A stretch of 64,000 bases of DNA. Origin: Alphaproteobacteria bacterium (GTDB lineage Bacteria; Pseudomonadota; Alphaproteobacteria; CAAHEQ01; UBA3637). The notes below the pieces were generated by a model. It did not search any database, was not told where the DNA came from, and worked only from the letters and a program-made list of their open reading frames with translations. Below, piece by piece: positions 39,809 through 57,529 of this stretch. The DNA is taken from NCBI GenBank assembly GCA_015062395.1, contig SUUS01000001.1, positions 65,429 to 129,428 on the forward strand, written 5' to 3'. Both the position numbers and the translations under genes were made by a program. Position 1 is the stretch's first letter. Every line of letters begins with the position of its first letter.

Positions 39809-42213
39809 ATGAAATTAAGTCAAACAGCGATTAGAGAATTATCTTCTTAATATCGAAGTGTTTTGAAAAAATGCTTCATTTTAAATGCCATCGTATTAAT
39901 GGCAGTTGCCCCTGCAATGGCAGCAGATTATGGCGTAGATGTGACGGAAACCAAAACATACACAGAAACATCTTTTGATGGAACTGTTGCTGGTATTTAT
40001 TCTGGTACTGGAAAAACAGGTACTTTTACAGCTGAAGACATCGTAATTAAAGACACCGAAAGAGGAATTTATGCTGTAGGCACTGACTCTAAAGTGATTA
40101 TTGGTAGCGAATCGGAATTTACCGACAGTTTAACTATATCGAACGTATCTAACAGAGGTATCAGAGCAGAAAAAGGTGCTGAAGTAGATATTTATACTGA
40201 CGATGTCTCGATAAGTGCTGGTGATGACGTATATGCATTACATGTTCGGGGAACGACAAGTACAAATCAAAAAGACGAATCAGACATTGTCACATTGATT
40301 TCCATTAATGCAGAAGATGTAAATTTAACCAGTAAAAATGTTGCTGCTGTTATTGTAAATAATGCAAGTATAAAACAAGATAAAAACAATTCTCCTACGT
40401 CAAAAATTAGTATTGTAGCAGATAATATCAATATTTCATCAGATTCCATAGCACTTTCAACAATGAGTGAAGGAATTATTGAATTAACAGGAAATACTGT
40501 TTTAAACGCACCAGATGTAATTTCTGCTCGTGGAGAATCTACAATTAACATAAATACAACAGACGCAACAAAAACATTAAAAATGGATGGAAACATCAAC
40601 TTTAGTTATAACAATGCGACATCAAAAAGTGGTATTGACGCAAATGTTAACGTAGCGTTAAACGGTACTGAGTCTTATTGGTCTGGAAATACAACAGTTA
40701 ACTGGGATGTTAAACCAGAAAACGAAAAATTGATTGTCTCTAATGCGACTGTTTCATTGAATGAAGGCGCTACTTGGAATGTTGCAAAGATTGAAGAAAC
40801 GGATACACTAAGACAAAACGCATTGAATAACTTAATTGTAAACAAGGGAACTATTTCTGTTGGCACAGGCGCAAAAGCTTGGGTTGAAAATATGCAAGTT
40901 AATGGTAATTTAACCTTAAACGGTTCTGTTACAGCAGATTCCGTTGTTTTTGCGAATAATTCATCCTTAACAACAACATTATTAAAAGATACTGCCATTA
41001 TTACAGCAAATACTGTAGAAGTTGGTGAAAATTCTATTTAAATATCTCGAACGGTACAGGAACATACGCATTCATCGATGCTCAATTAACTGGAGATTTT
41101 TTAAATACTTTATATAACTTAGATGCAACAACAGAACAAGGAAAACTTATTGTATCTGAAAAATCTGCAGAAGATATTGCAAGTAATACAGGTATTTCCA
41201 CTGATGCGGCGGCCACAATTTCTGGATTAGCTGGTTCAGATAATGAAAAAGCTCAATCTATTGCAACCTATATTGAAAGCGAAATTAACTCCGGAAATAC
41301 TGATATCGTAGAAAAGATTACCAACAACATTAATCCGACTTCAAATCCTGTTGTTCAATCTGTATCAACAGAAGTTAATGGGCAAATTATGAATTTAGTT
41401 GGCGCTCGTTTAGCTCCTGCAACAGGACGTTCTGCAGGTGACTTTACAGGTGAATTTGGTGGTTTATGGGCTAAAGGCTTATACAACCGTTCAAAACAAG
41501 ACGGTCAATTCCACAGATACACAAAGGGCGTCGCAATGGGTGCTGATGTTATCTTTGACGAAACATTCACGTTAGGGGTTGGTTATGCTTACAATACAAC
41601 AGACGTCAAAGCCGATGCAAGAAAGACTGACATTAAAGGTCATAACTTCTTTGCTTACGCAGAATATCAACCAAACAACTGGTTCATGAATGCTGCAGTA
41701 AGTTATAGCAAAGCCGATTATACAGAACATAAAGAATTAGTCGGAGAAGAAGCTAACTACAATGTTGAAACTTACGGAGCTCAAGCAATGACTGGATACG
41801 ATTTTGCAGTTGGTTTAACACCTCAAGTTGGATTAAGATACTTGCATGTAAGACAAGATTCTTATAATGATGGTCTAACTTCTGTAAAAACAGAAGATAC
41901 TGACTTATTAACGGCTGTTGCAGGCATCAATTTTGCGAAAGATATGAAAGCATCAATCTTTACATTTACGCCAGAACTTCGTTTGGCTGCAACTTATGAT
42001 GTTGTTTCAGATGGAACAGAAGCCAATGTTATATTAGGAAATGCATCTTATACTGTTAAAGGTCAACGCTTACCTCGTTTTGGTGTCGAAACAGGTGTCG
42101 GTGTTCAAATGAATGTTGCCGATCGTCTTAACGTTAACGTTGATTATGATTTAGGTGTTCGCAGAGATTATATGAGCCATACAGGTACTGTATCTTTGAA
42201 ATACAACTTCTAA
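39809..42213 (+). pseudogene. Autotransporter adhesin-like gene disrupted by an in-frame TAA and a frameshift
   Basis: ATG at 39809 has a strong AAAGGAG and is followed by an in-frame TAA at 39848-39850, just before a perfect signal peptide (KKCFILNAIVLMAVAPAMA). The passenger has repetitive beta-helix-like N/T/S/G-rich repeats. Its frame ends at 41041 while the downstream frame is open from 41029. The C-terminal beta-barrel domain (41389-42213) ends ...SLKYNF. Confidence 0.7.
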
Positions 42214-42453: not shown

Positions 42454-42530
42454 CGGAGCGTAGCTCAGTCTGGTAGAGTACTTGGTTTGGGACCAAGGTG
42501 CCGTAGGTTCAAATCCTATCGCTCCGACCA
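42454..42530 (+). tRNA. tRNA-Pro (anticodon UGG), CCA encoded
   Basis: CGGAGCGTAGCTCAGTCTGGTAGAGTACTTGGTTTGGGACCAAGGTGCCGTAGGTTCAAATCCTATCGCTCCGACCA. Cloverleaf folded by hand: acceptor CGGAGCG/CGCTCCG, anticodon stem CTTGG/CCAAG with loop TT-TGG-GA, T-arm GTAGG-TTCAAAT-CCTAT. Confidence 0.93.
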
Positions 42531-43393: not shown

Positions 43394-44908
43394 ATGACTT
43401 TAAAAAATACAAGAGCGAGCAACTATCCTGAGTGGTATCAGAATGTCATAACTGCAGCTGATATGGCAGAAGTATCTTCTTCGCCAGGATGCATGGTTAT
43501 TAAGCCTTGGGGGTATGGGATATGGGAACGTATTCAACGGGTTCTAGATGATAAGATCAAAGAAACAGGTCATGAGAATTGTTACTTTCCTCTATTTATT
43601 CCTTTAAGCTATTTTCAAAAAGAAGCAGAGCATGTTGAAGGTTTTGCTAAAGAAATGGCAATTGTTACTCATAGTCGCTTAACTATGCAAGATGGCAAAT
43701 TGACACCTGATGGAAAATTGGAAGAACCTCTTATTGTTCGTCCTACCTCTGAAACAATTATTGCGGATTCGTTCTCAAAATGGGTCAAATCATACAGAGA
43801 TTTGCCAATTATGATAAATCAATGGGCAAATGTTGTCCGTTGGGAGATGAGACCAAGAATCTTTTTACGAACAAGAGAGTTTTTATGGCAAGAAGGTCAC
43901 ACTGCACATGCTAGTTATGAGGAAGCGGAACAAGAAGCAAAAACCATGTTGAATGTGTATTCTGATGTGGCACGAGATGCTTTGGCTATGCCTGTTATAA
44001 AAGGACGCAAGCCCGAGCATGAAAAATTCCCAGGCGCTGTTGATACATATTGTATAGAAGCAATGATGCAGGATGGTAGAGCTTTACAAGCTGGTACCTC
44101 GCACTTTTTAGGCCAAAATTTTGCCAAATCAGCTGATATTAAGTTTCTAGGTAAGGATGGGAAACAACAATATGCATACACAACCTCTTGGGGTGTAACG
44201 ACACGTCTAATTGGTAGCTTAATTATGACGCACGCTGATGATGAAGGAATGGTCGTTCCTCCAAAGATTGCACCACATCAAATTGTTATCGTCCCTATCA
44301 TCAAAGATAAAGCTCAAAGAGAGGAAGTAATGTCCTACGTGATGCGCTTGTATTCTGCTTTATCTAAACAGAGCTATGATGGCGAAAAAATTCGTGTAAA
44401 AGTTGATACAAGAGACAAGGAATCTGTAGACAAAATGTGGGAGTGGACACGAAAAGGTGCCCCCATTGTATGTGAGGTTGGACCTCGTGACGTAAAAAAC
44501 AATGGTTTAATGGTCAGAACAAGAAATAAGATCAACACCCCAGAATGGAAACAAGTTGTTCAGTTTGATGATTTTGTTTCATCAGCTTCTAAGAGGTTGG
44601 AAGATTTCCATATGGATTTATATAACGCTGCGAATACTCGTTTACAACAAAATCAAAGAACAGATATTACAACGGCAGAGGAAATGCAAGCATATTTTGC
44701 GCAACAAAACTCTTGGGTAAACGGTCAAGGGCAAAAGGTAGCTTTTGTCCGTGGCAAATGGTCTGAAGATCCAGAAAGCGTTGATAAAATGAAGGAAATG
44801 AAAATTTCAATTCGCTGTATTCCTGAGGATCAATCTCAGAAGGAAGGAAATTGCCTTTTGACTAATAAAAAAGCGAAACTTGATGTTATTTATGCAAGAT
44901 CTTATTAG
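43394..44908 (+). CDS. proS: Prolyl-tRNA synthetase, archaeal/eukaryote-like type (no INS domain, ProRS-C1-type C-terminal domain)
   Basis: 504 aa. YPEWYQNVITAADMAEVSSSPGCMVIKPWGYGIWE and the following N-terminus are typical of type-II (archaeal/eukaryote-like) ProRS. Class II motifs RPTSET, FLRTREFLWQEGHTAH and TSWGVTTR. The C-terminus ends ...VIYARSY, with the conserved terminal Tyr of this subtype. Confidence 0.9.
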   Translation: MTLKNTRASNYPEWYQNVITAADMAEVSSSPGCMVIKPWGYGIWERIQRVLDDKIKETGHENCYFPLFIPLSYFQKEAEHVEGFAKEMAIVTHSRLTMQDGKLTPDGKLEEPLIVRPTSETIIADSFSKWVKSYRDLPIMINQWANVVRWEMRPRIFLRTREFLWQEGHTAHASYEEAEQEAKTMLNVYSDVARDALAMPVIKGRKPEHEKFPGAVDTYCIEAMMQDGRALQAGTSHFLGQNFAKSADIKFLGKDGKQQYAYTTSWGVTTRLIGSLIMTHADDEGMVVPPKIAPHQIVIVPIIKDKAQREEVMSYVMRLYSALSKQSYDGEKIRVKVDTRDKESVDKMWEWTRKGAPIVCEVGPRDVKNNGLMVRTRNKINTPEWKQVVQFDDFVSSASKRLEDFHMDLYNAANTRLQQNQRTDITTAEEMQAYFAQQNSWVNGQGQKVAFVRGKWSEDPESVDKMKEMKISIRCIPEDQSQKEGNCLLTNKKAKLDVIYARSY

Positions 44909-44913
44909 AAAAA

Positions 44914-45573
44914 ATGAGCAAAATTTTTCTTTATCATGTAGATAAATCAAAAATTGATGAGTCTCAGCTTTCTGTTCTGGAGTCTATTTTGTCAGCAACA
45001 GAAAACAAAAGATTTAAAAAGATAAAAATGATAGATGCGAGAAAGAATTTTATTCTTTCTCGTTTTCTGATTAATAAGGCATTAATGAATTTCAATTGTG
45101 CGCAAAGATTTCATATTGGTAGAACTATATATGGGAAACCATATTTATCTCCAAATCCTAAAAATTTAAAAATATCAATAAGTCATACGAGAGATATTAT
45201 TTGCCTTTTAATTGCAAAAAATATAGAGTTTATAGGTGTTGATATAGAGGAAAAAAACAGAAAAATAAATAAAAAAGGTATTATAAATTTTCTGTACTCT
45301 CCTGATGAAAAATTGTATCTTAAAACAAAAGATTTGTATAAAAATTTTTTTAAATATTGGACCTTTAAGGAGGCATTTACGAAAGCTCTTGGAAAAGGAC
45401 TTTTAATTCCATTTAATCAAATATCCTTTTCCAAAAAATACCAAAAGTATTATGTTACCTCTGTGCCTATTGATATAAACTCTAATACAACAGGGTTCAT
45501 AGTATGTTTAGATAAAAATGAAAGATCAGCCGATATTAACATAAATAATGTTATTATAGGAGGGATAAAATGA
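44914..45573 (+). CDS. Sfp-type 4'-phosphopantetheinyl transferase
   Basis: GKPYL, SISHT, IGVDIEE and YWTFKEAFTKALGKG (the W/KEA motif). It starts 5 nt after the ProRS2 stop. Confidence 0.85.
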   Translation: MSKIFLYHVDKSKIDESQLSVLESILSATENKRFKKIKMIDARKNFILSRFLINKALMNFNCAQRFHIGRTIYGKPYLSPNPKNLKISISHTRDIICLLIAKNIEFIGVDIEEKNRKINKKGIINFLYSPDEKLYLKTKDLYKNFFKYWTFKEAFTKALGKGLLIPFNQISFSKKYQKYYVTSVPIDINSNTTGFIVCLDKNERSADININNVIIGGIK

Positions 45574-46409
45574 AAAGAATTTGTATTGCGACAGATGAAG
45601 ATAATATCAATGATCCTGAGAATTTACTAATTAGTAAAATTCTTAATGACATGGGAGCTAAAGCAGAATTGACTATTTGGGATAAACAAGAAAGTCTTTT
45701 CAAAGATTGCGACTATGTTTTAATTCGTTCTTGTTGGAATTATCACAAATACCCAGATAAATTTATTCAATGGATAAATTCTCTCAATATTCCAACAATC
45801 AACGCTAAGAGTTTAATCCAATGGAATATTCATAAAAAATATCTTCTTGAGTTAGAAAAACACAATATTGAAATTCCAAAAACATATGTTATTCAAAAAG
45901 AAAATGTAAAAGATTTTAATTTTAATATATTTGATGAATTTGTAATAAAACCAGCAATATCAGCAAGTGGCTATTTGACATATAAATATAATAAAAATGA
46001 TAGTGAAAAGGTAAATTCTTTACTTCCATTGTATTCTTCAGATGTTTTAATACAAGAATTCATTCCGGAAGTAATACAAGAAGGTGAAATATCCTTTGTA
46101 TTTTTCAACAATAGCTTTTCACATGCTGTAAAAAAAATACCTTCACTATCTGATTTCAGAAGTCAAGCAAGATATGGAGGAACTGTTAAAAATTTTATTC
46201 CAAATCAAGCTTTAAAAAATAAGGCAGTAGAAATAGTACAAAAAATCATGGATATCACTAACGAATGCCCTTTCTATATGAGATTAGATGCGGTTTTGAG
46301 AAAAAATAATTTAGTTATAATGGAAATTGAGGCAATTGAACCCAGGCTTTTTTTATCGAATTCAAATTGTGATATCTTTAAAAAAGCTTGGCAATCTATT
46401 CTTCCTTAA
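45570..46409 (+). CDS. ATP-grasp ligase, RimK/GshB-like
   Basis: VIKPAISASG, VLIQEFIP, DFRSQARYGGT (compare the RimK EFRSN..GG motif) and LVIMEIEAIEP. ATGA overlap with the PPTase gene and a GGAGG RBS. Confidence 0.75.
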   Translation: MKRICIATDEDNINDPENLLISKILNDMGAKAELTIWDKQESLFKDCDYVLIRSCWNYHKYPDKFIQWINSLNIPTINAKSLIQWNIHKKYLLELEKHNIEIPKTYVIQKENVKDFNFNIFDEFVIKPAISASGYLTYKYNKNDSEKVNSLLPLYSSDVLIQEFIPEVIQEGEISFVFFNNSFSHAVKKIPSLSDFRSQARYGGTVKNFIPNQALKNKAVEIVQKIMDITNECPFYMRLDAVLRKNNLVIMEIEAIEPRLFLSNSNCDIFKKAWQSILP

Positions 46410-49400
46410 CTGTATCTTCTAAAAGGGATATATACAAAGAAGCCCAGTCTTTAATGGTATTTATATCAAAACGATGAACATGATACCAAAAATTAAAACG
46501 AAGATTGCTTTTCTGCATGTCGACTATCAGAAATAATCCCGCTAATTCTCTTAAGGTTGAATAGTTTAATGTATTCAACAATGGTTCTGAAATGGTTCCA
46601 AGTGTTTCTAAAACTTCTACTTTAGGCCAGACATTGTCTTTTTCTTTGTGATAATTATTCAGCATGATATAGGCATCTGTGAAATAACTTGATCGAGAGA
46701 AATTCAAAAACTTTTCGACATACTTAGGTAAAAGATTCACTGGGTAGTAAGACCTTTCATTCACAAGAGATACAATACTATTAATTTGGGTTATTTGTGT
46801 CATATTAGAAAGAGTTTCATCTAAAGAAATCGGAAGTGGGAATTGTTTAACGAATGGGCCTATTGTTTCTTTAAAATTATCCTCTGTTCGTCCATTGAAA
46901 ACAGTTCCTATTAATAAATTATGTTGTCTTGTTAATTTTACCAATAACTTCGAATAAACAAACAACAATACTGAAAAAACGGATACATGCGCTTTATGAG
47001 CAAATTTATTTAAGGATTCATATACTTTTTCTGAAGAAAAAATGGTATAGCAACTTGACGGATAACACTGTTCAAAAAATTCATCTCCGGTTTTATTTGG
47101 CAAAATTACAGGACGTGCAATACCAGCATATAACCCACCAAAGAAGGCTTCATTTTCCTTTTCTGTCTCCAGTAAAAATTTATGTTGCCAATCTACATAT
47201 TGATCATAGAGAACTGGATTTGGGAGTCTCAAATGTGATTTTTGAAGAAAAGAGGCATAAAATTTTCTTAATTCTTCAACAAATACCGTCACAGATGTTC
47301 CATCGAATGGCAAATGATGCGTAAAAAGAAGACATATAAACTGATTATTATTTAACTTTAAAATTTTTAAAATCCAAGGTGGGGTTTTTGTAATATCAGG
47401 AAAAGAAGATGTTAACGTACATGCTAAATTTTTTATATATTCAGCAACATTTTCTACACCCTTCATATTCACAAAAATACTTTCACTAGAAATGAAATCT
47501 TTTATATTACAAGTTTCATAATGATTATCAACATAACAATGTGTCAAAATTGGATGTCTTGAAATAACCTCTTTTAAGGCGTTCAAAAATGAATTCTTTT
47601 TTAGTTCGCAATGGAAAAGTATTGGTATCAATAAATATCCATATTTAATTCTTTCTAATGCCACCCACCTTTGTTCTTCATATGATAACTTGTTTTCACT
47701 ATTGTTCTTATCCAAGACAATCTCTGTTTTTTCACATAGTTTTTTATCCAATGATTTACTGGAACAATTTTTGATACAAAAGGCTGTTAAATTTCTTAAA
47801 GTTCTTTCTTTAAATACAACACTAACAGGGAATGAAATATTTAACAAATGTCTAATAGCGTTACGTAATTCTATTGCGCTTAAAGAATCAAGTCCCAAAT
47901 CAAAAAGATCATCATCTTTTTCAATATGGCAATTATGTGTATATTTGTCTAAAACTCGAGCAACTTCGGATGAGACAATACTAGGAATGTCTTGAATGCT
48001 GTATTGAGTTAATGTATCCGTGTTCTTTTCCTCAACAGGCAAATAATCTTTTGCTAACAATCTAAAGAACGGGCTATTTTCGAGTTTATATTTTCTTAAA
48101 AAGATATTCCAATTCATAGGTAATAAAATTACCTGTTCTTGTAAACTAAGTATTGATGACATTATCTCATCGAAATCGTTTTTTTTAAGATAAGAATATC
48201 CCTTTTCTTCTAATTTCTGCTGTAGATTCTTGTTTATATCAATAGTTCCTAAGTCCCCCCATGCTCCCCAATTAATACTTAATGCTGGTAATCCCAAAGA
48301 TATCCTATATTTACACACAGAATCCAAGAATGCGTTTGCTGTTGTATAATTAGATTGTCCAGGATTTCCTATTACGGATACAGCGGAAGAAAAGACTACA
48401 AAAAAATCTAACTGTGTATTTAAAGAGAGTTTATGTAAATTCCATACTCCAAGAACCTTTGCCTTTGCAATTTTCTTAAAGTCCTCCATAGTCGTATTTG
48501 TAAAGGATTTATCCTCAATACAACCAGCCGCATGCACAATTCCACCGATATTTTTTATATCAAGTTTTGAAGACAATGCAAAAAACTTGCTCTCATCGGA
48601 AATATCCATACTTATATATTCTAGGTCTAATGTGTCATCAAGCAGCTTTAAAGTTCTTATTTGTTCTATCACCTCATTCTTTTCCCGACGGCCAACTATC
48701 ACAATTCGTTTTGCACCATTTTTAATGAGCCACTTACTGGTTAAAAGTCCTAATGCACCTACCCCCCCTGTCACTAAATATTGTTTTTTAGGAACTATAG
48801 TGAGTTTCCGTTCTGATGATAAAGAAATGGGGGCTAAAGTTGCTTCAAAGACACTTTTCCCGCCTGGATCAATTTGAAAAAAACTAAACGACTTTTGCTG
48901 ACGTATACACGAAGCAATCTTTGAAATAGAATTTTCTGTCAATGCCTTTGCAAAAAAACAAGAGCATTTGATTTCTGAATTTTCAAGACAAATTGTTTTT
49001 AAAAGAGAAACTAGAGATTCATTTAAAAAGTCATTACCAACAAAAATAAACGAAATATTTTCTATTTTCCCCATTAAAAAGGCTTCTTTTAAGGAATAAA
49101 AAACGTTTTTGATCTTATTTAAATAAAGCCTTAAGATATCAGATGAGGTGTAATTCTGCACATCATCGGAAATACTGTCTATAACATATACAATACGTTC
49201 TATTTTCTTCTTAAAAGAATCAAGTTTTTCTTTTAAGAAGAATGAGTTATTTGAAATATCTGTACTTACAAGGAGATTCTTTTCTGATGAGAAGTGTGCT
49301 ATTTGACTTTTATCTCCTATAATTAACGAATTCTCTATATAAGATTTAGAAAAATTAGAAAGCGAAACTGATTCCCATTGAATTTTGTATAAATCGTTTC

Positions 49401-52400
49401 TCCAACTTGCCTTTTGTAATAAATCAACCGGCTCAAGATAATATTTTTTTAAATCAAAAGGATAAGTTGGTAGTTCAATTAATAAACAATTATCTTTCGG
49501 TAGGATATGGTCAAAATTAACGGATATTCCTTTCGAAAATAATTTTCCAAATGCTGAAAGTAATTGTTCTGTATCATCAGTAGTTTTTCTCATCATAGGT
49601 ATATATGTTGCGTTCTGCTCATCATAACATTCTGCAACCATATTAAGAAGCACAGAATTTGGACCTATTTCCAAGAAAATATCAACATCCTTATTTTTTA
49701 AATTATGGATCATATTTTCAAAATTGACAGGTTGAATCATGTGGTTACACCAATAGTCTGAAGATATTTCTCCTGTTTGAATAAAATCCCCCGTTACATT
49801 TGAAAGTAATTTTATAAAAGGATCCTTAAATGAAAATTTGGAAAGATATTTTTTATATACCGCCACAAGGGGATTAGCAACACTTGAATGGCCAAAACTG
49901 CTGTTATCTAATTTTTGTGCTTCAATCTTCTGATCATGTAAAGCTTTAAAAAGTGATAGTATTCTCTCTGTTGGACCAGATACAACCACTAAATTAGGTG
50001 TATTGATAGATGCTATAGATATCTCATTATAGTTTTCCAACAGTTTTTCGACAGTATTTTTATTAGCTCTGATTGCTAACATTTTTGCATGAATTTTTAA
50101 TGAAGTTAACAAAACAGCTCTATGATAAACTATTTGAAGTAATTCATTTAATTTTAGTATACCAGCACAGTAAGCTGCAACGTATTCTCCCAAACTATGT
50201 CCTAATACAAATTTAGGCAAAATTGCCATTTGTTTTAAAATTTCTAGAATAGATACTTCTATGGCTACAATTGCCAGTTGATTTAAAATAACATCTTGTT
50301 CTGAATATTTTTCCTGTTTCCATATTATATCGATTAGATCAAAATCCGTAAATTTCTTTATAATTTTATTACATTCCTGAATCTTTTTCTTAAAAATAGC
50401 ATTTTTCTCATACAGCCTCTTTCCCATCCCAAAATATTGAGATGTATAACCAGAAAAAATAAAGGCAAGCTGTTGTTTTTGTGAGACCTTAAAATCATCT
50501 TTTGTAACAGATGGGAGTTTTAATCGTTTTTCAGTATTTGACAGTTCGTATATCAAACGATCCATTGTATTCGCAACAAAAGAGACCCTATAATCAAAAT
50601 GATATTTCCTCTTTAAAAGTGAATAAGAGATATCCTGTAGACGTAAATCACGATGATTTTCGAAGAAAATTCTATGATTGTGTATTATTTTAACTAAATC
50701 CTCGAATTTCTTTCCAGAAAAAACAAACAAATAAAAATTATTCTTTTGTTTTGTTTGGTTGTTTTTTTTGTGTGAATAACTTTCTAAAATGACATTAGCG
50801 TTAGTACCACCAAGACCAAAGGAATTCACTAAGCAATAATGTTTCTTTGATTTCCAAGGGATCGTTTTATTATTTACATAAAAGGGAGAATCATCCAACT
50901 CCAATAAGGGGTTATTTTTTTTAAAATGAAGTGTAGCAGGTATTTGTTTATGCTGAATACATAAAATTGCTTTTATTATCCCTGCCATGCCAGAAGCCCA
51001 ACCGAGATGACCTATATTAGTTTTTACGCTCCCAATAACGCAATCCCTTTTCCTATTATTACCGAAAACATTTTTTAATGCTTGGATTTCAACTGCATCT
51101 CCAACGACAGTTCCAGTTCCATGTGTTTCAATAAAAGAAATTTTATCTGGCAGTATGTTTGCATCTTTTAAAGCTTGCTGTAATGATCGTGTTTGTCCAT
51201 CAATTGTTGGTGCTAGAAAATTAGATTTCCCATTATTTCCATCATTACTAACACCACTTCCTGAAATAATGGCTAAAATATTATCTTTATCTTTTATGGC
51301 TTTTGATAGTGGTTTTAATAAAACTACTCCTAATCCTTGGGCCATCATCATACCTTCTGATCTTTCATCGAAAGTACGTGTATGGCCATCTGGTGACCAA
51401 GGCATGTCTTTTTGGAAAGTATATTTATGTTTTGATGGGGACATAATGTTTACAGCACCAACTAGTGCCATTTCACATTCTCCATTCAAAAGAGCTTGTT
51501 TTGCCAAGTGAATTGCAACCAACGATGAAGAACATGCAGATTGTACATTAATACTTGGTCCTTCTAACCCCAATTTAAAGGAAACTTTTGTTGGTAAGTA
51601 ATCCTTATCCCCGCCCATCATAACTTGCAAATCCGAAAAACGTTCGAAGAAATACCTATTAGAACGATAATCTAAGTTTGGGTTAAGGTTATTAACAAGA
51701 TAGCTACTAAATCCTTGGGAAGCAAAGACTCCTATCTTTTTAGTCGTATTATTGTTAAGATATCCTGTTTTTTCTAGTAGTTCCCAAGATAATTCCAAAA
51801 ACTTTCGTTGTTGTGGATCCATCATTTCTGCTTCAGTCTTTGAATATCCAAAGAATTCAGCATCAAACAAATTTGCATCATCAATTGTAGATGAACAAAA
51901 TACATCATGCTCAAAGGGATCCAGCATTGACAAATCCTGTGATGGGCCAAAAGATTCGATACTTTCTTTACCAGTTGAAAGAAAATTCCAAAATTCGTCA
52001 GGAGTATGGCACTTAGGAAAATTGCATGCCATTCCTATTACAGCGATTTTTTCTTTTACAGGTTTTCCAAAATCTTGAATAACTGCTTCTTTCCCCTGTA
52101 TTATATTTCCTTTTAAGAGATCAGATACAGCATTAAATGTACTATTTTTTAGTAGCATAGCAACTGGTATTTTTTGCTTGAATGTTTCGAAAATTTTCGT
52201 GTATAGCTGAAGCAAGAGTAATGAGGTTCCACCTAGCTCAAAGAATGTCTTATTTTTGTCAAAGTCGGTTATGTGCAAAAGATCTCGCCAGATTTCTTCC
52301 AACTTAGTCAATTCTGAATGGGTTGTTGTTTCTTTTTTTTCTATATACGTTTGAATTAATACTTTTCTATCCAGTTTCCCTGACGGGGTTCTCGGTAATT

Positions 52401-53811
52401 TGTCAATTACGACAAAATCTTTAGGAGTCATATAATTAGGCACCAGAGTACCAATGGATTGCTTTATATCCAAAATCTCAGTTTTTTCGTTTTTCAAGAC
52501 AATAAAAGCGACAAGGAAAGTGGGCCGATTTTCAGCCATTATCGGACAAACAGCACATTCAAGAACATTTTTATCTTTTGATAATAGGTACTCTATTTCT
52601 GCAAGTTCTATTCTATACCCACTTATTTTTACTTGGTCATCTTTTCGCCCAACGAATTCAAGTTGCTTTTTCTTGTTTAGCTTGACAATATCGCCTGTTG
52701 CATATAGAAGATTTTTTGTGTTTTGAGGATCTGGGATGAAAGATTTATTTGTATCCTTTGGATTATTTACATACCCTTTAGCAATAAACGGAGCACAGAT
52801 AAACAATTCACCCTCCGTAGTAGCTGTAAGTTTTTCATTTAGAATTTTTAACTGTATATTGGATATAGGCTTTCCTATGGGAGGGAGTTTCCCCCACTGA
52901 TTAACATTCTTTGGTAATGTAAACGAAGTGACAACATGGGTCTCACTCGGACCATACTGATTGATTAGACGGCAATGCTTTAGAATTTTAAAAAAAGAAC
53001 GAATTACTGGCGTTATAATCAACTGTTCACCGGCTGTGATTACTTCTTTAAGAGAGGTAGGAAAGGTTTTATTAAGATCTGCGATTTGCGCTATGTAATT
53101 TAACATTACTGCGGGGAGAAAAATCCGTTCAATCTTGAACTTGTCAATTAAGTACAGCAGTTTTTCAGGATCTTTTCTTTCATTTTCTTCAATCAGTACT
53201 AATGAAGCACCCGTACATAAAGTAGAAAAAATTTCTTGAAAAGAAACATCGAAGCTAATTGGGGCAAATTGTAATGTTCTTTTTATCGCAGATTCTTTAA
53301 TTTGCCATGTAATAAGATTTTCAAGAACTGATGTTGGCATAACAACACCCTTTGGAGCTCCCGTAGAACCAGAAGTAAATATAATATAGGCCAATTTACC
53401 AAAACCGTTATTGTTTACGGTTTTATTTCCCCTTGAATTTTTAATTATCTTTTCAAAAAAAACAAACTTTTTATTTCTTTTGTCAATGGTTACATCATCT
53501 GTGATAATTAAATTTGTACCGGATTTTTCCTGCATAAAATTCAAACGCTCGACAGGATAACTCTTATCAAGTGGAACATAAGGGTTTCCAGACTTTAGAA
53601 TTCCTAAAATAGAGATAATTAACTCTATTGATCTGTCAAATAGTACTCCTACTGGTTTCTTATAATTTAATGATTTTATATAACCTGCAACTAAATCTGA
53701 TTTGAAATCTAATTCTCCATAAGTTAGCTCTATACCATCCTTAATAATGGCTACCTTATCGGGAGTCTCGACACAAATCTTCTTAAAATTGTTATATAAA
53801 CTACTTTGCAT
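46396..53811 (-). CDS. Hybrid NRPS-PKS megasynthase, A-T-KS-AT-KR-ACP-C (2471 aa)
   Basis: All core motifs are found in order; see the domain sub-features. There is no TE or reductase release domain. The protein ends in a condensation domain with an intact HHxxxDG. Confidence 0.95.
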   Translation of the reverse strand: MQSSLYNNFKKICVETPDKVAIIKDGIELTYGELDFKSDLVAGYIKSLNYKKPVGVLFDRSIELIISILGILKSGNPYVPLDKSYPVERLNFMQEKSGTNLIITDDVTIDKRNKKFVFFEKIIKNSRGNKTVNNNGFGKLAYIIFTSGSTGAPKGVVMPTSVLENLITWQIKESAIKRTLQFAPISFDVSFQEIFSTLCTGASLVLIEENERKDPEKLLYLIDKFKIERIFLPAVMLNYIAQIADLNKTFPTSLKEVITAGEQLIITPVIRSFFKILKHCRLINQYGPSETHVVTSFTLPKNVNQWGKLPPIGKPISNIQLKILNEKLTATTEGELFICAPFIAKGYVNNPKDTNKSFIPDPQNTKNLLYATGDIVKLNKKKQLEFVGRKDDQVKISGYRIELAEIEYLLSKDKNVLECAVCPIMAENRPTFLVAFIVLKNEKTEILDIKQSIGTLVPNYMTPKDFVVIDKLPRTPSGKLDRKVLIQTYIEKKETTTHSELTKLEEIWRDLLHITDFDKNKTFFELGGTSLLLLQLYTKIFETFKQKIPVAMLLKNSTFNAVSDLLKGNIIQGKEAVIQDFGKPVKEKIAVIGMACNFPKCHTPDEFWNFLSTGKESIESFGPSQDLSMLDPFEHDVFCSSTIDDANLFDAEFFGYSKTEAEMMDPQQRKFLELSWELLEKTGYLNNNTTKKIGVFASQGFSSYLVNNLNPNLDYRSNRYFFERFSDLQVMMGGDKDYLPTKVSFKLGLEGPSINVQSACSSSLVAIHLAKQALLNGECEMALVGAVNIMSPSKHKYTFQKDMPWSPDGHTRTFDERSEGMMMAQGLGVVLLKPLSKAIKDKDNILAIISGSGVSNDGNNGKSNFLAPTIDGQTRSLQQALKDANILPDKISFIETHGTGTVVGDAVEIQALKNVFGNNRKRDCVIGSVKTNIGHLGWASGMAGIIKAILCIQHKQIPATLHFKKNNPLLELDDSPFYVNNKTIPWKSKKHYCLVNSFGLGGTNANVILESYSHKKNNQTKQKNNFYLFVFSGKKFEDLVKIIHNHRIFFENHRDLRLQDISYSLLKRKYHFDYRVSFVANTMDRLIYELSNTEKRLKLPSVTKDDFKVSQKQQLAFIFSGYTSQYFGMGKRLYEKNAIFKKKIQECNKIIKKFTDFDLIDIIWKQEKYSEQDVILNQLAIVAIEVSILEILKQMAILPKFVLGHSLGEYVAAYCAGILKLNELLQIVYHRAVLLTSLKIHAKMLAIRANKNTVEKLLENYNEISIASINTPNLVVVSGPTERILSLFKALHDQKIEAQKLDNSSFGHSSVANPLVAVYKKYLSKFSFKDPFIKLLSNVTGDFIQTGEISSDYWCNHMIQPVNFENMIHNLKNKDVDIFLEIGPNSVLLNMVAECYDEQNATYIPMMRKTTDDTEQLLSAFGKLFSKGISVNFDHILPKDNCLLIELPTYPFDLKKYYLEPVDLLQKASWRNDLYKIQWESVSLSNFSKSYIENSLIIGDKSQIAHFSSEKNLLVSTDISNNSFFLKEKLDSFKKKIERIVYVIDSISDDVQNYTSSDILRLYLNKIKNVFYSLKEAFLMGKIENISFIFVGNDFLNESLVSLLKTICLENSEIKCSCFFAKALTENSISKIASCIRQQKSFSFFQIDPGGKSVFEATLAPISLSSERKLTIVPKKQYLVTGGVGALGLLTSKWLIKNGAKRIVIVGRREKNEVIEQIRTLKLLDDTLDLEYISMDISDESKFFALSSKLDIKNIGGIVHAAGCIEDKSFTNTTMEDFKKIAKAKVLGVWNLHKLSLNTQLDFFVVFSSAVSVIGNPGQSNYTTANAFLDSVCKYRISLGLPALSINWGAWGDLGTIDINKNLQQKLEEKGYSYLKKNDFDEIMSSILSLQEQVILLPMNWNIFLRKYKLENSPFFRLLAKDYLPVEEKNTDTLTQYSIQDIPSIVSSEVARVLDKYTHNCHIEKDDDLFDLGLDSLSAIELRNAIRHLLNISFPVSVVFKERTLRNLTAFCIKNCSSKSLDKKLCEKTEIVLDKNNSENKLSYEEQRWVALERIKYGYLLIPILFHCELKKNSFLNALKEVISRHPILTHCYVDNHYETCNIKDFISSESIFVNMKGVENVAEYIKNLACTLTSSFPDITKTPPWILKILKLNNNQFICLLFTHHLPFDGTSVTVFVEELRKFYASFLQKSHLRLPNPVLYDQYVDWQHKFLLETEKENEAFFGGLYAGIARPVILPNKTGDEFFEQCYPSSCYTIFSSEKVYESLNKFAHKAHVSVFSVLLFVYSKLLVKLTRQHNLLIGTVFNGRTEDNFKETIGPFVKQFPLPISLDETLSNMTQITQINSIVSLVNERSYYPVNLLPKYVEKFLNFSRSSYFTDAYIMLNNYHKEKDNVWPKVEVLETLGTISEPLLNTLNYSTLRELAGLFLIVDMQKSNLRFNFWYHVHRFDINTIKDWASLYISLLEDTVKEE
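46399..47694 (-). other. C-terminal condensation domain (aa ~2040-2471)
   Basis: LLFTHHLPFDGTSVTVF (HHxxxDG, His2165/His2166/Asp2170). About 430 aa, the typical C-domain length. Confidence 0.8.
47767..47979 (-). other. ACP domain (aa ~1945-2015)
   Basis: LFDLGLDSLSAIELRNAI (Ser1976). Confidence 0.85.
48232..48786 (-). other. Ketoreductase catalytic subdomain (aa ~1676-1860)
   Basis: YLVTGGVGALGLLTSKWL, HAAGCIEDK (LDD-like, hinting at B-type), SSAVSVIGNPGQSNYTTANAFLD (Tyr1822). The preceding aa ~1450-1675 look like the structural psi-KR half, with no DH HxxxGxxxxP motif. Confidence 0.85.
49552..50475 (-). other. Acyltransferase domain (aa ~1113-1420), non-canonical specificity motifs
   Basis: FIFSGYTSQYFGMG appears in place of the usual GQGSQ. 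The active site is GHSLGEY (Ser1206). SFGHS sits where HAFH or YASH normally does. Confidence 0.85.
50782..52050 (-). other. Ketosynthase domain (aa ~588-1010)
   Basis: IAVIGMACNFP, DPQQRKFLE, VQSACSSSLVAIHLA (Cys760), ETHGTGT (His897), KTNIGHLGWASG (His935). Confidence 0.92.
52102..52314 (-). other. Thiolation (PCP) domain (aa ~500-570)
   Basis: FFELGGTSLLLLQL, with Ser530 as the phosphopantetheine site. Confidence 0.8.
52357..53811 (-). other. Adenylation domain (aa ~1-485), proline-like specificity code
   Basis: A3 YIIFTSGSTGAPKGV, A4 FDVSFQEIF, A5 NQYGPSETHV, A6 GELFICAPFIAKGY, A7 YATGDIV, A8 GRKDDQVKISGYRIELAEIE, A10 PRTPSGKLDRK. Boundaries are approximate. Confidence 0.9.
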
Positions 53812-54043
53812 GATTCTGAATGAAACTCACAACATCCCCTATCGCTTTCATTTTGGCTATTTCTTCATTTGGAAAAGAAATATTAAATTTTTCTTCCAAC
53901 CGAAAAAATAAATCCATTTTATCTAAGGAATCCACTTCCATTTCTTTAAAAGACATATCACTGGTCAATATCTTATCATGTAAAGCGAACTTTACCTCTT
54001 TTAACGTTTCTTGAACTATTTGAAAAATATCGTTATCACTCAT
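53801..54043 (-). CDS. Discrete acyl carrier protein
   Basis: 80 aa. MEVDSLDKMDLFFRLEE (DSL serine motif). AGGAGG RBS. Overlaps the megasynthase start by 11 nt. Confidence 0.8.
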   Translation of the reverse strand: MSDNDIFQIVQETLKEVKFALHDKILTSDMSFKEMEVDSLDKMDLFFRLEEKFNISFPNEEIAKMKAIGDVVSFIQNHAK

Positions 54044-55004
54044 TTTTGCCTCCTGTCAATGTTAATAAACAATTACACCAAGAAAAACCCGTTCCAAATC
54101 CAGATAATACAAGGTAATTAGCATCTTTTTGTTTCAGATGTGGCTCTAGGATTAATGGGATTGATGATGAACTCGTATTACCATAATTAGCCGCTTTGAA
54201 TTTTAACTGATTTTCTTTTAGATTCAGGGTCGAAGATAATCTTTCCAGTAGATATCTTGATGGTTGATGACACAAAAACTCAGAAATATCACAAGTATCC
54301 AGTCCGTTTTTTAACAATAAGTTTTTAATTGATGCTGGAATTTCTTTCAACACATTATTAAAGACCATACGACCATCCATTCTTAAAAAATTTTTTTCTA
54401 TTATGGTCTCATAAGAATTTGGCAATGTTCCAAAATCCCAATCTTTTAAAATATATCCTGTTGAAACATCTTTTGTTATATAAGTCACTGTTGCTGCGTC
54501 GCCAAAGAGTAATACTGTATTTTTATCTTTTGGGTCTAGAATCCTCGATAACTGGTCACATGTGAAGAAGAGAGCGTTTTTCAAATGAAGGGTTTTCATC
54601 ATAGATAAAACGGTTAGTAAAGCATGGCAAAAACCAGCACATCCTTGACCGATATCAAAAGTAATACATTTTTTTGATAAACCTATTTTATTATGTAAAA
54701 TCGCGGACATATATGGAGCCTTATGATCTGGTGTTTGTGTTACCGTACATACTAAATCAATATTTTCAATGTCAATTTTGATTTTTTTCTCTAAATCATG
54801 CCATGCAGATAAACACATATCAGCCAAAGTCTGATGTTCTTTTATTTTAGACCTCCTAATTATTCCCAATTTATTTTCTATGAAATCTGGACTTACCTCA
54901 AAAGTTGTTAATAAATCCATATTATTTACATAGTTATCTGGAATATAAGTGCCAATACATTTTATTTTAAAGTTTTGCAAGCTCATCCCTCCTATTGATT
55001 TCAT
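54036..55004 (-). CDS. KASIII (FabH-like) beta-ketoacyl-ACP synthase
   Basis: DIGQGCAGFCHAL (Cys), FLCHQPS (His), ANYGNTSSSSIPLIL (Asn): a complete Cys-His-Asn triad. The start is uncertain (55004 or 54986). Overlaps the ACP gene by 8 nt. Confidence 0.85.
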   Translation of the reverse strand: MKSIGGMSLQNFKIKCIGTYIPDNYVNNMDLLTTFEVSPDFIENKLGIIRRSKIKEHQTLADMCLSAWHDLEKKIKIDIENIDLVCTVTQTPDHKAPYMSAILHNKIGLSKKCITFDIGQGCAGFCHALLTVLSMMKTLHLKNALFFTCDQLSRILDPKDKNTVLLFGDAATVTYITKDVSTGYILKDWDFGTLPNSYETIIEKNFLRMDGRMVFNNVLKEIPASIKNLLLKNGLDTCDISEFLCHQPSRYLLERLSSTLNLKENQLKFKAANYGNTSSSSIPLILEPHLKQKDANYLVLSGFGTGFSWCNCLLTLTGGKNE

Positions 55005-56067
55005 ATATTGGGAAATATGTTGGAATTTCAGAATTTTGATAATCTAGTATTAGTTGTGGAATATCTTCCCAACAATAGGTATACACGTCATCTATTATAG
55101 GCATCCAATTGTGCGAAATTGCATAGTTCATCGCATCTAAAGCTTCCTGACGATTTGCATAATGAGTATTTACATGTATGTGTCGATTAATGCATTCAAC
55201 CGTTCTTGAAATAGGAAGTAAGGATCCTGTCTTCCAACCACATGATGAAATTACGGCGTTCCTTCCCAATCCTTTTAGTGCTATTTTTGTGAATGTTCCT
55301 CCTAAATTATCTATAAATATTGATGCTCCCTCATTATGTGTTTCTCTTGAAATATACGACAAAAAATCTTTTTCAAAATCCTTAAATGTGGTTCGATTTA
55401 TGGGGATTATCCCTGAAGAACGAGCATATCTCTCTCTGTACTCATTTGATACCGTCATATAAACACTAAACCCCACTTTTTTTGCGAGAAGAAGTTCAGC
55501 ATATGAAACTCCACCACCATAAGCAAAAACGGACAATCCCTTTGGCTTTCGTTTCGAAAAGGTTTGTATTTTCCAACAGCCATACGCTTGCCGCCAATTT
55601 GAATAAGCAGAAATGAAGCGACCAGAGAATGCGGCCCATTGTTTCAAGGAAAATTGTGAATTTGGGGGTATCTTAATAACCTGTTCCTCTTTCAATTTGA
55701 TTTTTTTTGCTAAATTTCCCATAATTCCTTTTGCATCATAACCCGCTATCTTTATCGGATAACCTTGGGCGTCAGAGATACCATTCCCAAAATAAATGGC
55801 AAAATCACCAATTTCCACTGAGGAAACCTTCTTTCCTCTATTTTGAATATAAAGAACACCAGTATTACCCAAAATTATTTCTTCTTCTGCTCTATCTTCA
55901 TTAATGTTTGTGGGAACTTTTTGTACAGCATGTAAGATGTTTGCTTCAAAACAACCATAAACAGGTAAAGCCAATACCTCATCATCCTCAATATCCGGAA
56001 AATGAATTATTTTTCGTTCTAAAATAGATGAATCCTTCTGTAAAACATACGCCTCTGTTTCAATCAT
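54967..56067 (-). CDS. MDR-superfamily NAD(P)-dependent oxidoreductase (enoyl-reductase or CCR-like candidate)
   Basis: 366 aa. Rossmann segment VFAYGGGVSYAELLLAKKVGFSVYMTVSNEYRERYARSSGIIPINR fits the MDR pattern GxGGVGxxAxQLAKxxGAxVxxT. GroES-like N-terminal half. Confidence 0.65.
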   Translation of the reverse strand: MIETEAYVLQKDSSILERKIIHFPDIEDDEVLALPVYGCFEANILHAVQKVPTNINEDRAEEEIILGNTGVLYIQNRGKKVSSVEIGDFAIYFGNGISDAQGYPIKIAGYDAKGIMGNLAKKIKLKEEQVIKIPPNSQFSLKQWAAFSGRFISAYSNWRQAYGCWKIQTFSKRKPKGLSVFAYGGGVSYAELLLAKKVGFSVYMTVSNEYRERYARSSGIIPINRTTFKDFEKDFLSYISRETHNEGASIFIDNLGGTFTKIALKGLGRNAVISSCGWKTGSLLPISRTVECINRHIHVNTHYANRQEALDAMNYAISHNWMPIIDDVYTYCWEDIPQLILDYQNSEIPTYFPIYEINRRDELAKL

Positions 56068-56912: not shown

Positions 56913-57353
56913 TTACTCACTGACAGCAGTTGAAGAAAAAATAGCTTCTGCAACAATTCTATTGTTGATTCTAATTGTTCCTTCAAACTTATAAGCATTA
57001 CCGATAGAGTGTTTTTTTATAGCCTCAATGTAAAGAGTATCTCCAGGGCGAGCTTGCCCTCTAAATTTTGCACTTTCAATAGTCATAAAAAGAAAAATTA
57101 AATTATGACATTTTCTTTCTTTAAGGTCAAAATACATCAGTATATTCGACAATTGGGACATTGCTTCAACAAAGAAAGTTCCAGGAAAAATGGGGTTATT
57201 TGGGAAATGTCCTTTTAAGAAGAATTCATCTGATGAAATTTCTTTTATGCCCGAAATTTTATCACTGGTATAGTCCAACACAGCGTCAACCATCAACATA
57301 GGATAACGATGCGGAAGAATTGTTTTTATTTTTTCTAAATCTAAACTTGGCAT
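56913..57353 (-). CDS. fabZ: FabZ-like 3-hydroxyacyl-ACP dehydratase
   Basis: LPHRYPMLMVDAVLDY and GHFPNNPIFPGTFFVEAMSQ (catalytic His and Glu context). It is not in the usual lpxD-fabZ-lpxA context. Confidence 0.85.
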   Translation of the reverse strand: MPSLDLEKIKTILPHRYPMLMVDAVLDYTSDKISGIKEISSDEFFLKGHFPNNPIFPGTFFVEAMSQLSNILMYFDLKERKCHNLIFLFMTIESAKFRGQARPGDTLYIEAIKKHSIGNAYKFEGTIRINNRIVAEAIFSSTAVSE

Positions 57354-57452: not shown

Positions 57453-57529
57453 TGGTCGGAGTGGCGGGATTTGAACCCACGACCCCTACGTCCCGAACGT
57501 AGTGCTCTACCAAACTGAGCTACACTCCG
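57453..57529 (-). tRNA. tRNA-Pro (anticodon CGG), CCA encoded
   Basis: Reverse complement is CGGAGTGTAGCTCAGTTTGGTAGAGCACTACGTTCGGGACGTAGGGGTCGTGGGTTCAAATCCCGCCACTCCGACCA. Acceptor CGGAGTG/CACTCCG, anticodon stem CTACG/CGTAG with loop TT-CGG-GA. Confidence 0.93.

Follow-up and report, generated by a model that had tools for sequence, protein, structure and literature searches.

A clade of terminal condensation domains that may release the products of minimal amino acid-polyketide assembly lines, including a proline-type line of an alphaproteobacterium

Several systems close to the one described here have been reported. SwnK, the hybrid of nonribosomal peptide synthetase (NRPS) and polyketide synthase (PKS) of fungal swainsonine biosynthesis, is composed of adenylation (A), thiolation (T), ketosynthase (KS), acyltransferase (AT), ketoreductase (KR) and reductase (R) domains in the order A-T-KS-AT-KR-T-R, and the chain it releases cyclises through the ring nitrogen (PMC5473758). 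Detoxin/rimosamide-like NRPS-PKS enzymes, e.g. PipC, join proline to one ketide, which is reduced to give a beta-hydroxy acid unit (PMC12828459). JamQ, a protein resembling condensation (C) domains, has been proposed to close the pyrrolinone ring of jamaicamide (PMC2799420, PMC13643306), and Johnston et al. noted that terminal C domains, though frequent in Legionella clusters, are seldom encountered elsewhere (PMC5640695). Bacterial assembly lines rarely release their products through a C domain, and this mode of release is poorly understood.

In the present study, we analysed a stretch of 64,000 nucleotides from an alphaproteobacterial metagenome-assembled genome (MAG; GenBank assembly GCA_015062395.1, contig SUUS01000001.1, positions 65,429 to 129,428 of the forward strand), referred to as the window. 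The window has a G+C content of ~32% and carries the gene of a hybrid NRPS-PKS megasynthase that starts with an A domain and ends, after an acyl carrier protein (ACP) domain, in a C domain (Table 1). We show that this C domain belongs to a dedicated clade, which most likely releases the products of lines made of one amino acid and one ketide. We further propose, with a probability of roughly 0.4, that it acts as a cyclising release catalyst, so that the starter amine would attack the thioester to form a gamma-lactam, here 1-hydroxypyrrolizidin-3-one.

The assignment of the protein of 2,471 amino acids (aa) as a hybrid NRPS/PKS was also given by NCBIfam, and an exact look-up of its sequence yielded no match. 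Pfam PP-binding matched two stretches of the megasynthase, and the T domain following the A domain has its Ser in LGGTSL (aa 526-531). Judged by motif, the active sites of the KS, AT and KR domains, both carrier Ser residues and the His, Asp and Gly of the C domain are intact. A preliminary description of this DNA had stated that the last ~430 aa form a C domain, that the gene ends at 46396 and that neither a thioesterase (TE) nor a reductase follows. All three statements are borne out by the open reading frame (ORF) and by Pfam. The Condensation match (PF00668) reached 150 bits against a cut-off of 30.6 (E=1.1e-43) and extended over profile positions 35-435 of 456. The stop of the megasynthase gene overlaps by 14 nt with the end of the convergent ATP-grasp gene, and therefore no TE or reductase can follow the C domain; a thioester reductase after the ACP (a second short-chain dehydrogenase/reductase (SDR) or NAD_binding_4) had no Pfam match in the megasynthase. 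The more than 40 relatives described below also end in a C domain.

These relatives were collected by several searches. A word-indexed search of 5.8 billion proteins with the C domain returned three relatives at 30-35% identity, and seven when a profile was used, while ~40 more were obtained by an exhaustive profile search, a scan of GTDB representatives, a metagenome scan and a second profile search. Giant NRPSs, whose scores were sums over many domains, made up most of the list from the exhaustive search, and members were picked by single full-length matches. In a neighbour-joining tree built with capped distances, 44 terminal C sequences were monophyletic with respect to an outgroup of 40 randomly sampled ordinary NRPS C domains without subtype labels (50/50 bootstraps), and the stem of the clade measured ~0.9 substitutions per site. 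The window C domain shares 24-40% identity with members of the clade and 17-23% with other C domains. All relatives carry the domain at their extreme C-terminus, and three arrangements were found. In most relatives, the line reads KS-(AT)-(cMT)-KR-ACP-C, where cMT is a C-methyltransferase, with A-T as a separate protein of 618-640 aa. In others, it is a fused A-T-KS-AT-KR-ACP-C, as in the window, or a lone carrier domain precedes the C domain (T-C proteins). The window domain does not appear to be a C domain of the LCL elongation type, as the clade is separate and no A-T follows downstream in more than 40 members. No description of this clade was found in literature searches, and to our knowledge no product has been assigned to any family member. 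The dedicated clade, its spread across phyla and its companion genes appear to be new, while release by terminal C domains and a layout like that of SwnK were already known.

Conservation of the active site points to a working domain. The intact HHLPFDG motif reported in the preliminary description was located at the expected place (Table 1). In the 44 sequences, the motif reads [Q/H/R]-H-[L/I]-x-[F/M]-D-G, with the consensus QHLEFDG, and its second His, Asp and Gly are invariant throughout (44/44). The first His is replaced by Gln or Arg in 43/44, the window being the sole member with HH, and ~50 further positions are invariant across the terminal C sequences. The invariance of His, Asp and Gly therefore suggests that catalysis has been retained and argues against a relic. 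The window C domain is apparently active, and the alternative raised before, that it might group with inactive or structural C domains, is not borne out by the sequence, which does not look degenerate. Comparison with solved structures gave weak sequence matches to the elongation C domains of TycC6, LgrA and BacC (E ~1e-11) and to SgcC5 (E=1.7e-5), while the best matches of the family profile in the PDB were BacC, PvdL, Txo1/2 and TycC6. An AlphaFold2 (AF2) model of the C domain, of moderate quality (predicted local distance difference test (pLDDT) score 71, predicted template modelling (pTM) score 0.73), shows, at this moderate confidence, the two-lobed fold resembling chloramphenicol acetyltransferase. 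Foldseek with this model retrieved C, epimerisation (E), cyclisation (Cy) and X structures at template modelling (TM) scores of 0.7-0.78 and E ~1e-22, with SgcC5 on top by a negligible margin and all of these structures scoring alike.

The lines that carry this clade share a simple design. The same one-extension line ended by a clade C domain is present in Patescibacteria, Gammaproteobacteria, Actinomycetota and the present alphaproteobacterial MAG; the actinomycete members include Streptomyces and Kitasatospora, and the alphaproteobacterial members are of gut type. The loader is A-T without a starter C domain, and each line has a single KS module. This also holds for locus L018, in which the A code is not that of proline (DVLFMGIVVK) and the flank examined contains neither a CntL-like gene nor a gene for prolyl-tRNA synthetase (ProRS), two companions of the window line that are treated below. 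The exception is L013 (JGI contig Ga0586918_0001225), an unrelated cluster that encodes a T-C protein representing a subclade of the terminal C domains, along with a Ser-code C-A protein, a P450, an Asp/Arg hydroxylase, PNPOx and an ornithine-cyclodeaminase-like gene. The presence of this subclade indicates that the terminal C clade is not limited to proline lines. Except for L013, an A-T loader without a starter C domain followed by one extension would therefore place a gamma-amino thioester before the C domain, with the geometry of a five-membered lactam. The smallest clusters, which come from Patescibacteria and from a gammaproteobacterial MAG, contain no TE, R, extra carrier or downstream A domain, so that the C domain is the only candidate for the release function there. 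The genes downstream of the line in these loci are all unrelated to it, namely a TrmB regulator, an aminotransferase and ClpB. Two release options had been offered in the preliminary description, transfer to another molecule and intramolecular attack of the pyrrolidine nitrogen, and the family-wide architecture favours the second, the lactam.

The tethered intermediate was predicted from the domain order and the specificity motifs. The A code was read by alignment to a GrsA-PheA reference, which reproduces the published code DAWTIAAICK. The window and its Patescibacteria relatives have DVQFIAQVVK, identical to the canonical Pro code at 9/10 positions, and the window A domain was counted as matching the test pattern DVQ[FL]IAHVVK on this basis (9/10). 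The canonical code itself, DVQFIAHVVK, is present in the relative L009 (Kitasatospora). Therefore, the starter is, by its predicted specificity, proline or a very close analogue, which backs the loading of proline proposed earlier, although the code cannot separate proline from azetidine-2-carboxylate. In the KR domain, C-I-E-D was found at 1764-1767 (IED at 1765-1767) and the catalytic Tyr in GQSNY at 1818-1822. The IED at the LDD position and the Tyr agree with the earlier hint of a B-type KR, and the stereochemistry is inferred from the motif rule. The specificity motif of the AT reads S-F-G-H-S (aa 1304-1310, nt ~49882-49902), where the family consensus is RAGHS. HAFHS, the malonyl motif, was found only in L004 among the family ATs, and the window AT does not match HAFH. 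With this non-canonical motif, a malonyl extender is therefore assumed, and the unit may be other than plain malonyl. Thus, the 3-hydroxy-3-(pyrrolidin-2-yl)propanoyl unit predicted in the preliminary description is supported in part, by colinearity, the Pro code and the KR, whereas its extender remains an assumption and its starter may be azetidine-2-carboxylate.

Variation within the family was also observed in these domains. The catalytic Tyr of the KR is replaced by His (GQANHAAAN) in most members (L003-L007, L009-L012 and most P-numbered protein hits), and Tyr is kept in the window, L008 and P0086. The His variants may be either unusual or inactive KRs; if inactive, the products would be of the tetramate (beta-keto) type. 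Moreover, a recognisable AT is missing from some relatives; L005 has a C-methyltransferase in its place, and L004 has one as an extra domain.

Herein, we propose the following course for the window line. Prolyl-S-T would undergo a single extension, presumably with malonyl, and reduction of the resulting beta-keto group by the B-type KR would give (3R)-3-hydroxy-3-(pyrrolidin-2-yl)propanoyl-S-ACP. The pyrrolidine nitrogen, four atoms from the thioester, would stay free because the loading module has no starter C domain. The terminal C domain would then place this amine for attack on the thioester, with His2166 as a base or an orienting residue, and would release the bicyclic gamma-lactam 1-hydroxypyrrolizidin-3-one. 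The products of the neighbouring genes, i.e. a CntL/nicotianamine synthase (NAS)-like enzyme, a DcsG-like ATP-grasp enzyme and a set of ketoacyl-ACP synthase III (KASIII), ACP, FabZ and alcohol dehydrogenase (ADH)-like proteins, may act before or after release.

Table 1. Positions of the megasynthase, its domains and the neighbouring features in the window.
Feature	Position	Strand	Basis
Hybrid NRPS-PKS gene, A-T-KS-AT-KR-ACP-C (2,471 aa, 7,416 nt)	46396..53811	-	ORF list, translation, Pfam, NCBIfam
Adenylation domain, aa 11-479	52375..53781	-	Pfam AMP-binding 11-347, AMP-binding_C 405-479
KS domain, aa 587-963	50923..52053	-	Pfam; Cys in SACSSS (aa 758-763), both His present
AT domain, aa 1117-1429	49525..50463	-	Pfam; GHSLGE and carboxylate-binding Arg present
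KR domain, aa 1678-1852	48256..48780	-	Pfam; IED at LDD position, catalytic Tyr present
ACP of the PKS module, aa 1962-2011	47779..47928	-	Pfam; Ser in LGLDSL
Terminal C domain, aa 2040-2471	46396..47694	-	Pfam Condensation match aa 2066-2469
HHLPFDG active-site motif, aa 2165-2171	47299..47319	-	Motif position; second His = His2166, catalytic position
Discrete carrier protein, 80 aa	53801..54043	-	ORF; weak PP-binding match on identical locus L024
KASIII (FabH-like), Cys/His/Asn triad intact	54036..55004	-	Pfam; PDB FabH E=1e-37
Medium-chain dehydrogenase/reductase (MDR)/ADH_zinc_N-like oxidoreductase	54967..56067	-	Pfam; weak PDB matches
CntL/nicotianamine-synthase-like S-adenosylmethionine (SAM) enzyme, 258 aa	56064..56840	-	Family profile versus PDB
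FabA/FabZ-like dehydratase	56913..57353	-	Pfam
DcsG-like ATP-grasp, convergent with the megasynthase	45570..46409	+	Pfam; sole PDB match DcsG E=9.5e-10; DcsG_N match
Sfp-type phosphopantetheinyl transferase (PPTase)	44914..45573	+	Pfam; homologues in L004-L007
ProRS2, archaeal/eukaryote-like with ProRS-C_1 domain	43394..44908	+	Pfam
Second ProRS, bacterial type with editing domain, among housekeeping genes	34919-36637	-	Pfam
tRNA-Pro(UGG), left cluster flank	42454..42530	+	
tRNA-Pro(CGG), right cluster flank	57453..57529	-	

The conservation of the neighbouring genes was examined by tblastn of the cluster proteins of the window against the related loci, together with Pfam on the other genes there. 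The CntL-like gene was found in nine Pro-type loci. A profile of the nine members matched CntL in the PDB with E=6.4e-13 over the full length and thermoNAS with E=3.8e-7, the region of the glycine-rich SAM motif is conserved in the family, and Pfam NAS matches 4/9 members, the window protein itself having no Pfam match. These profile matches uphold the label "NAS-like" given before. The other companions are distributed less widely. Recurrence of KASIII and the ADH-like gene is limited to L017 and L018, with a KASIII homologue adjoining the terminal C domain in L018 and ADH-like homologues downstream of it in both loci; in addition, KASIII and ACP genes follow the T-C protein P0001, the only other place where the discrete ACP recurs. 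FabZ was found in no related locus. The ATP-grasp gene recurs only in the near-identical loci L024-L028 and in a 76% relative, L015, where the same convergent arrangement is present. Thus, of the enzymes earlier proposed to supply an acceptor for the chain, the NAS-like enzyme is kept with the Pro-type lines, whereas KASIII occurs in a subset only, the ACP once elsewhere, and the ATP-grasp gene has the narrow distribution just given. The gene at 58075-58809, which had been considered as a possible sole release enzyme, encodes a Fat-type acyl-ACP thioesterase with a hot-dog fold and lies beyond the right tRNA-Pro gene on the opposite strand. As a conserved release enzyme it was rejected, as it occurs in none of the related loci and thus falls outside the conserved gene set.

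Several further genes were observed in the sister clusters and at the cluster edge. A VanX-like M15 dipeptidase recurs in L004-L007, L014 and L016. The actinomycete loci L008-L011 add genes for a fused glutamate mutase, TauD, arginase-family, AstE-like and beta-lactamase-like proteins, and also a formyltransferase-like gene and two FemAB-like (aminoacyl-tRNA-dependent) genes, with no second A domain. DcsG is the ATP-dependent ring-closing enzyme of D-cycloserine biosynthesis, and a parallel to cycloserine was noted in the DcsG-like ATP-grasp of the window and in the VanX-like D-Ala-D-Ala dipeptidases and arginase-family genes of the sister clusters. At the edge of the cluster, an autotransporter is apparently split into a passenger-like ORF (39863-41041, + strand, 392 aa, no Pfam match) and a beta-barrel ORF (41389-42213, + strand, 274 aa), which may reflect a pseudogene or a frameshift.

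Two ProRS genes of different types lie within 10 kb in the window. Next to the line, a gene of the ProRS2 type is found in L005-L007 (Patescibacteria), L008-L010 (actinomycetes) and L014. Overall, adjacency of ProRS was observed in eight loci from at least four distant lineages, and exclusively in lines with a Pro code; in L009, the start of the ProRS gene overlaps the preceding arginase-family gene (translationally coupled). The repeated adjacency in distant lineages and the restriction to Pro-code lines therefore argue for a functional link to proline. This link could be resistance, the supply of Pro-tRNA (FemAB-like genes being present in the actinomycete loci) or co-regulation. The window ProRS2 is 100% identical to an NCBI protein from an Alphaproteobacteria MAG, by way of which the locus itself was retrieved, and has thousands of homologues at 70-89% identity. 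Co-transfer of ProRS2 with the cluster was rejected, since the protein shares 70-89% identity with alphaproteobacterial ProRS outside such clusters, compared with 36-57% with cluster-linked ProRS; by these identities, it looks native to the lineage and not imported with the cluster. For example, a 70% relative sits in a housekeeping context, among genes for Fur, rubrerythrin, a ribosomal protein and RNase J. An 81% relative, from a related alphaproteobacterium (L030-L032), is located after a transposase and before genes for radical-SAM/SPASM, ScmC, nucleotidyltransferase and nucleoside-phosphorylase proteins, followed by two further radical-SAM genes and an alanyl-tRNA synthetase (AlaRS) gene. 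These genes may form a small biosynthetic set of another kind that accompanies this type of ProRS. A 39-aa HU-like remnant is called directly upstream of ProRS2 in identical contigs. The tRNA-Pro genes flanking the cluster were rejected as part of the system, as 0/11 related loci have a credible tRNA-Pro, the call in L008 falling inside the coding region of the A domain. Literature searches for a ProRS-linked, NAS-PKS or azetidine/ProRS cluster found nothing relevant.

Several points weigh against cyclising release by the C domain. The favoured release is predicted from architecture and motifs, which do not directly distinguish between nucleophiles. A gamma-amino thioester closes to a five-membered lactam with intrinsic ease, and a conserved catalyst of 430 aa may therefore serve to direct an intermolecular reaction instead. 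For the strictly co-conserved CntL/NAS-like enzyme, no obvious substrate would remain once the nitrogen is part of a lactam, and a product directed at ProRS, if that is what the adjacent ProRS signals, should keep its basic ring nitrogen free. Moreover, the L013 subclade, with its C-A(Ser) and T-C proteins, has an N-acylated donor and cannot use a free amine as nucleophile, the nearest solved structures by profile are elongation C domains with aminoacyl acceptors, and the structure model, of moderate quality, does not resolve the C subtype. In a tentative alternative, which we regard as somewhat unlikely, the C domain would transfer the beta-hydroxy-gamma-amino acyl chain to the alpha-amine of a soluble amino compound that is not bound to a carrier. 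The likeliest acceptor would be what the CntL/NAS-like enzyme makes, namely an amino acid to which a 3-amino-3-carboxypropyl group from SAM has been attached, and the outcome would be a linear pseudo-peptide with a free pyrrolidine NH. The presence of the CntL-like gene with Pro-type lines in nine loci and the activity of the nearest solved relatives, which acylate alpha-amines, are consistent with such a transfer, and the free ring NH would suit a product directed at ProRS. The soluble amino acid could be supplied or processed by enzymes of the respective lineages, namely the VanX-like M15 dipeptidase in Patescibacteria, L014 and L016 and the fused glutamate mutase with the AstE-like and beta-lactamase-like hydrolases in actinomycetes; a second A domain is absent from all of these clusters. 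However, the CntL-like and ProRS genes track the Pro-type A code and not the C clade (L018, L017 and L013 have no CntL-like gene in the flank examined), C domains rarely use soluble acceptors, and cyclisation through the gamma-amine would compete. The azetidine ring is made from SAM by plant NAS, and the starter itself might accordingly be azetidine-2-carboxylate formed by the NAS-like enzyme and loaded by the Pro-type A domain, with ProRS in a protective role and with any mode of release. This single idea would explain why the Pro-type A code, the NAS-family enzyme and ProRS co-vary; it is nevertheless unlikely, as azetidine rings are not made by CntL or archaeal thermoNAS, the nearest relatives of known structure, the known bacterial azetidine-2-carboxylate synthases are not among the PDB profile matches at E<=10, a second ProRS does not prevent mischarging by the first, and the window ProRS2 appears native to its lineage.

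A chain released by hydrolysis would be the free 3-hydroxy-3-(pyrrolidin-2-yl)propanoic acid, to be cyclised or ligated by the ATP-grasp enzyme and/or N-alkylated by the CntL-like enzyme, with a molecule resembling nicotianamine or mugineic acid as the outcome. Enzymes of the NAS/CntL type alkylate the amines of free amino acids, and the sole solved relative of the ATP-grasp enzyme, DcsG, is an ATP-dependent five-ring cyclase, the gene being kept in the 76% relative. The C-like release domain of CroK, of crocacin biosynthesis, provides a known precedent (cited in PMC5640695). Yet the ATP-grasp gene is absent from the family loci other than L024-L028 and L015, and the cluster showed no genes for metallophore transporters, which leaves hydrolysis decidedly unlikely. 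We consider it quite improbable that the line continues past the C domain onto a carrier-bound acceptor in trans, either the 80-aa ACP, loaded through KASIII, FabZ and the ADH-like protein, or a second prolyl-S-T. The discrete ACP and KASIII genes lie directly upstream in the window, KASIII and ACP genes follow P0001, KASIII and/or ADH-like genes flank L017 and L018, and the A-T of most relatives, being a separate protein, could serve twice. Even so, the minimal clusters have no extra carrier protein, transfer to a further carrier would leave the product tethered where no enzyme is present to release it, and the set resembling fatty acid synthase by itself offers no amine or hydroxyl nucleophile. 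Finally, the C domain might be a non-catalytic structural remnant, with release occurring spontaneously or through an unlinked enzyme such as the Fat-type thioesterase. Lactamisation could be spontaneous, and the first His of the motif is Gln or Arg in 43/44; nevertheless, the second His, Asp and Gly and ~50 other positions are invariant in 44 sequences from several phyla, and the Fat-type thioesterase, encoded on the opposite strand and past the flanking tRNA, occurs in no related locus. We therefore regard a remnant as highly improbable.

The family may be useful beyond the present locus. The whole C clade appears to be specialised for the simplest hybrid line, with one amino acid and one ketide, and offers a tractable system in vitro for how a C domain picks an intramolecular nucleophile, a soluble nucleophile or water. 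The NAS-like and ProRS companions of the Pro-type loci suggest azetidine or aminocarboxypropyl chemistry or a proline antimetabolite. We also consider, as an unlikely extension, that a proline-mimicking compound, either of the gamma-amino-beta-hydroxy ("prolyl-statine") kind or a pyrrolizidinone, might be built by the terminal C clade together with the NAS-like enzyme and act on ProRS, with the adjacent ProRS providing immunity, and that these minimal Pro-loading lines would form an uncharacterised cross-phylum family; if true, this would be the first bacterial natural-product class directed at ProRS. In addition, the Patescibacteria MAGs (L005, L006 and L007, together with L004) contain an operon of ProRS, VanX-like dipeptidase, PPTase, CntL-like, A-T and KS-cMT-KR-ACP-C genes. 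A complete NRPS-PKS operon in the genome-reduced Patescibacteria, also known as the Candidate Phyla Radiation (CPR), represents an unexpected biosynthetic capacity.

The window line can be compared with several known systems. The 258-aa partner family is homologous, at the profile level and over the full length, to CntL of staphylopine biosynthesis and to NAS; unlike the staphylopine genes, the window gene has no CntK racemase, CntM opine dehydrogenase or metallophore transporter nearby. The window C domain would resemble CroK-C2 (hydrolytic), FkbP/RapP, SgcC5 and JamQ in that a domain of the C superfamily would off-load the chain instead of a TE. CroK, FkbP and JamQ were likened to it by description and not by sequence, while for SgcC5 the sequence match is weak (see above) and its fold scores are much like those of other C domains. 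The detoxin/rimosamide enzymes and the dolaproine module of dolastatin 10 have the same tethered chemistry as predicted for the window, and some relatives of the window line add a C-methyltransferase, as units of the dolaproine type need. However, an upstream module N-acylates the proline in those systems, from which the chain is handed on or freed by a TE, whereas the proline of the window would be a starter with a free NH and the C domain ends the line. SwnK is similar in layout. By published domain order, the first six domains of both are the same (A-T-KS-AT-KR-T), and both would use a cyclic imino-acid starter without N-acylation, one malonate extension and reduction of the beta-keto group, with a bicyclic product arising by attack of the ring nitrogen. 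SwnK is fungal and loads pipecolate, whereas the window starter is of the proline type. Moreover, the C-terminal SDR e1 thioester reductase of the SwnK type is absent from the window protein: SwnK ends in a reductase, which leads through an aldehyde/iminium to an indolizidine, whereas the window line ends in a C domain, which is predicted to lead to a lactam.

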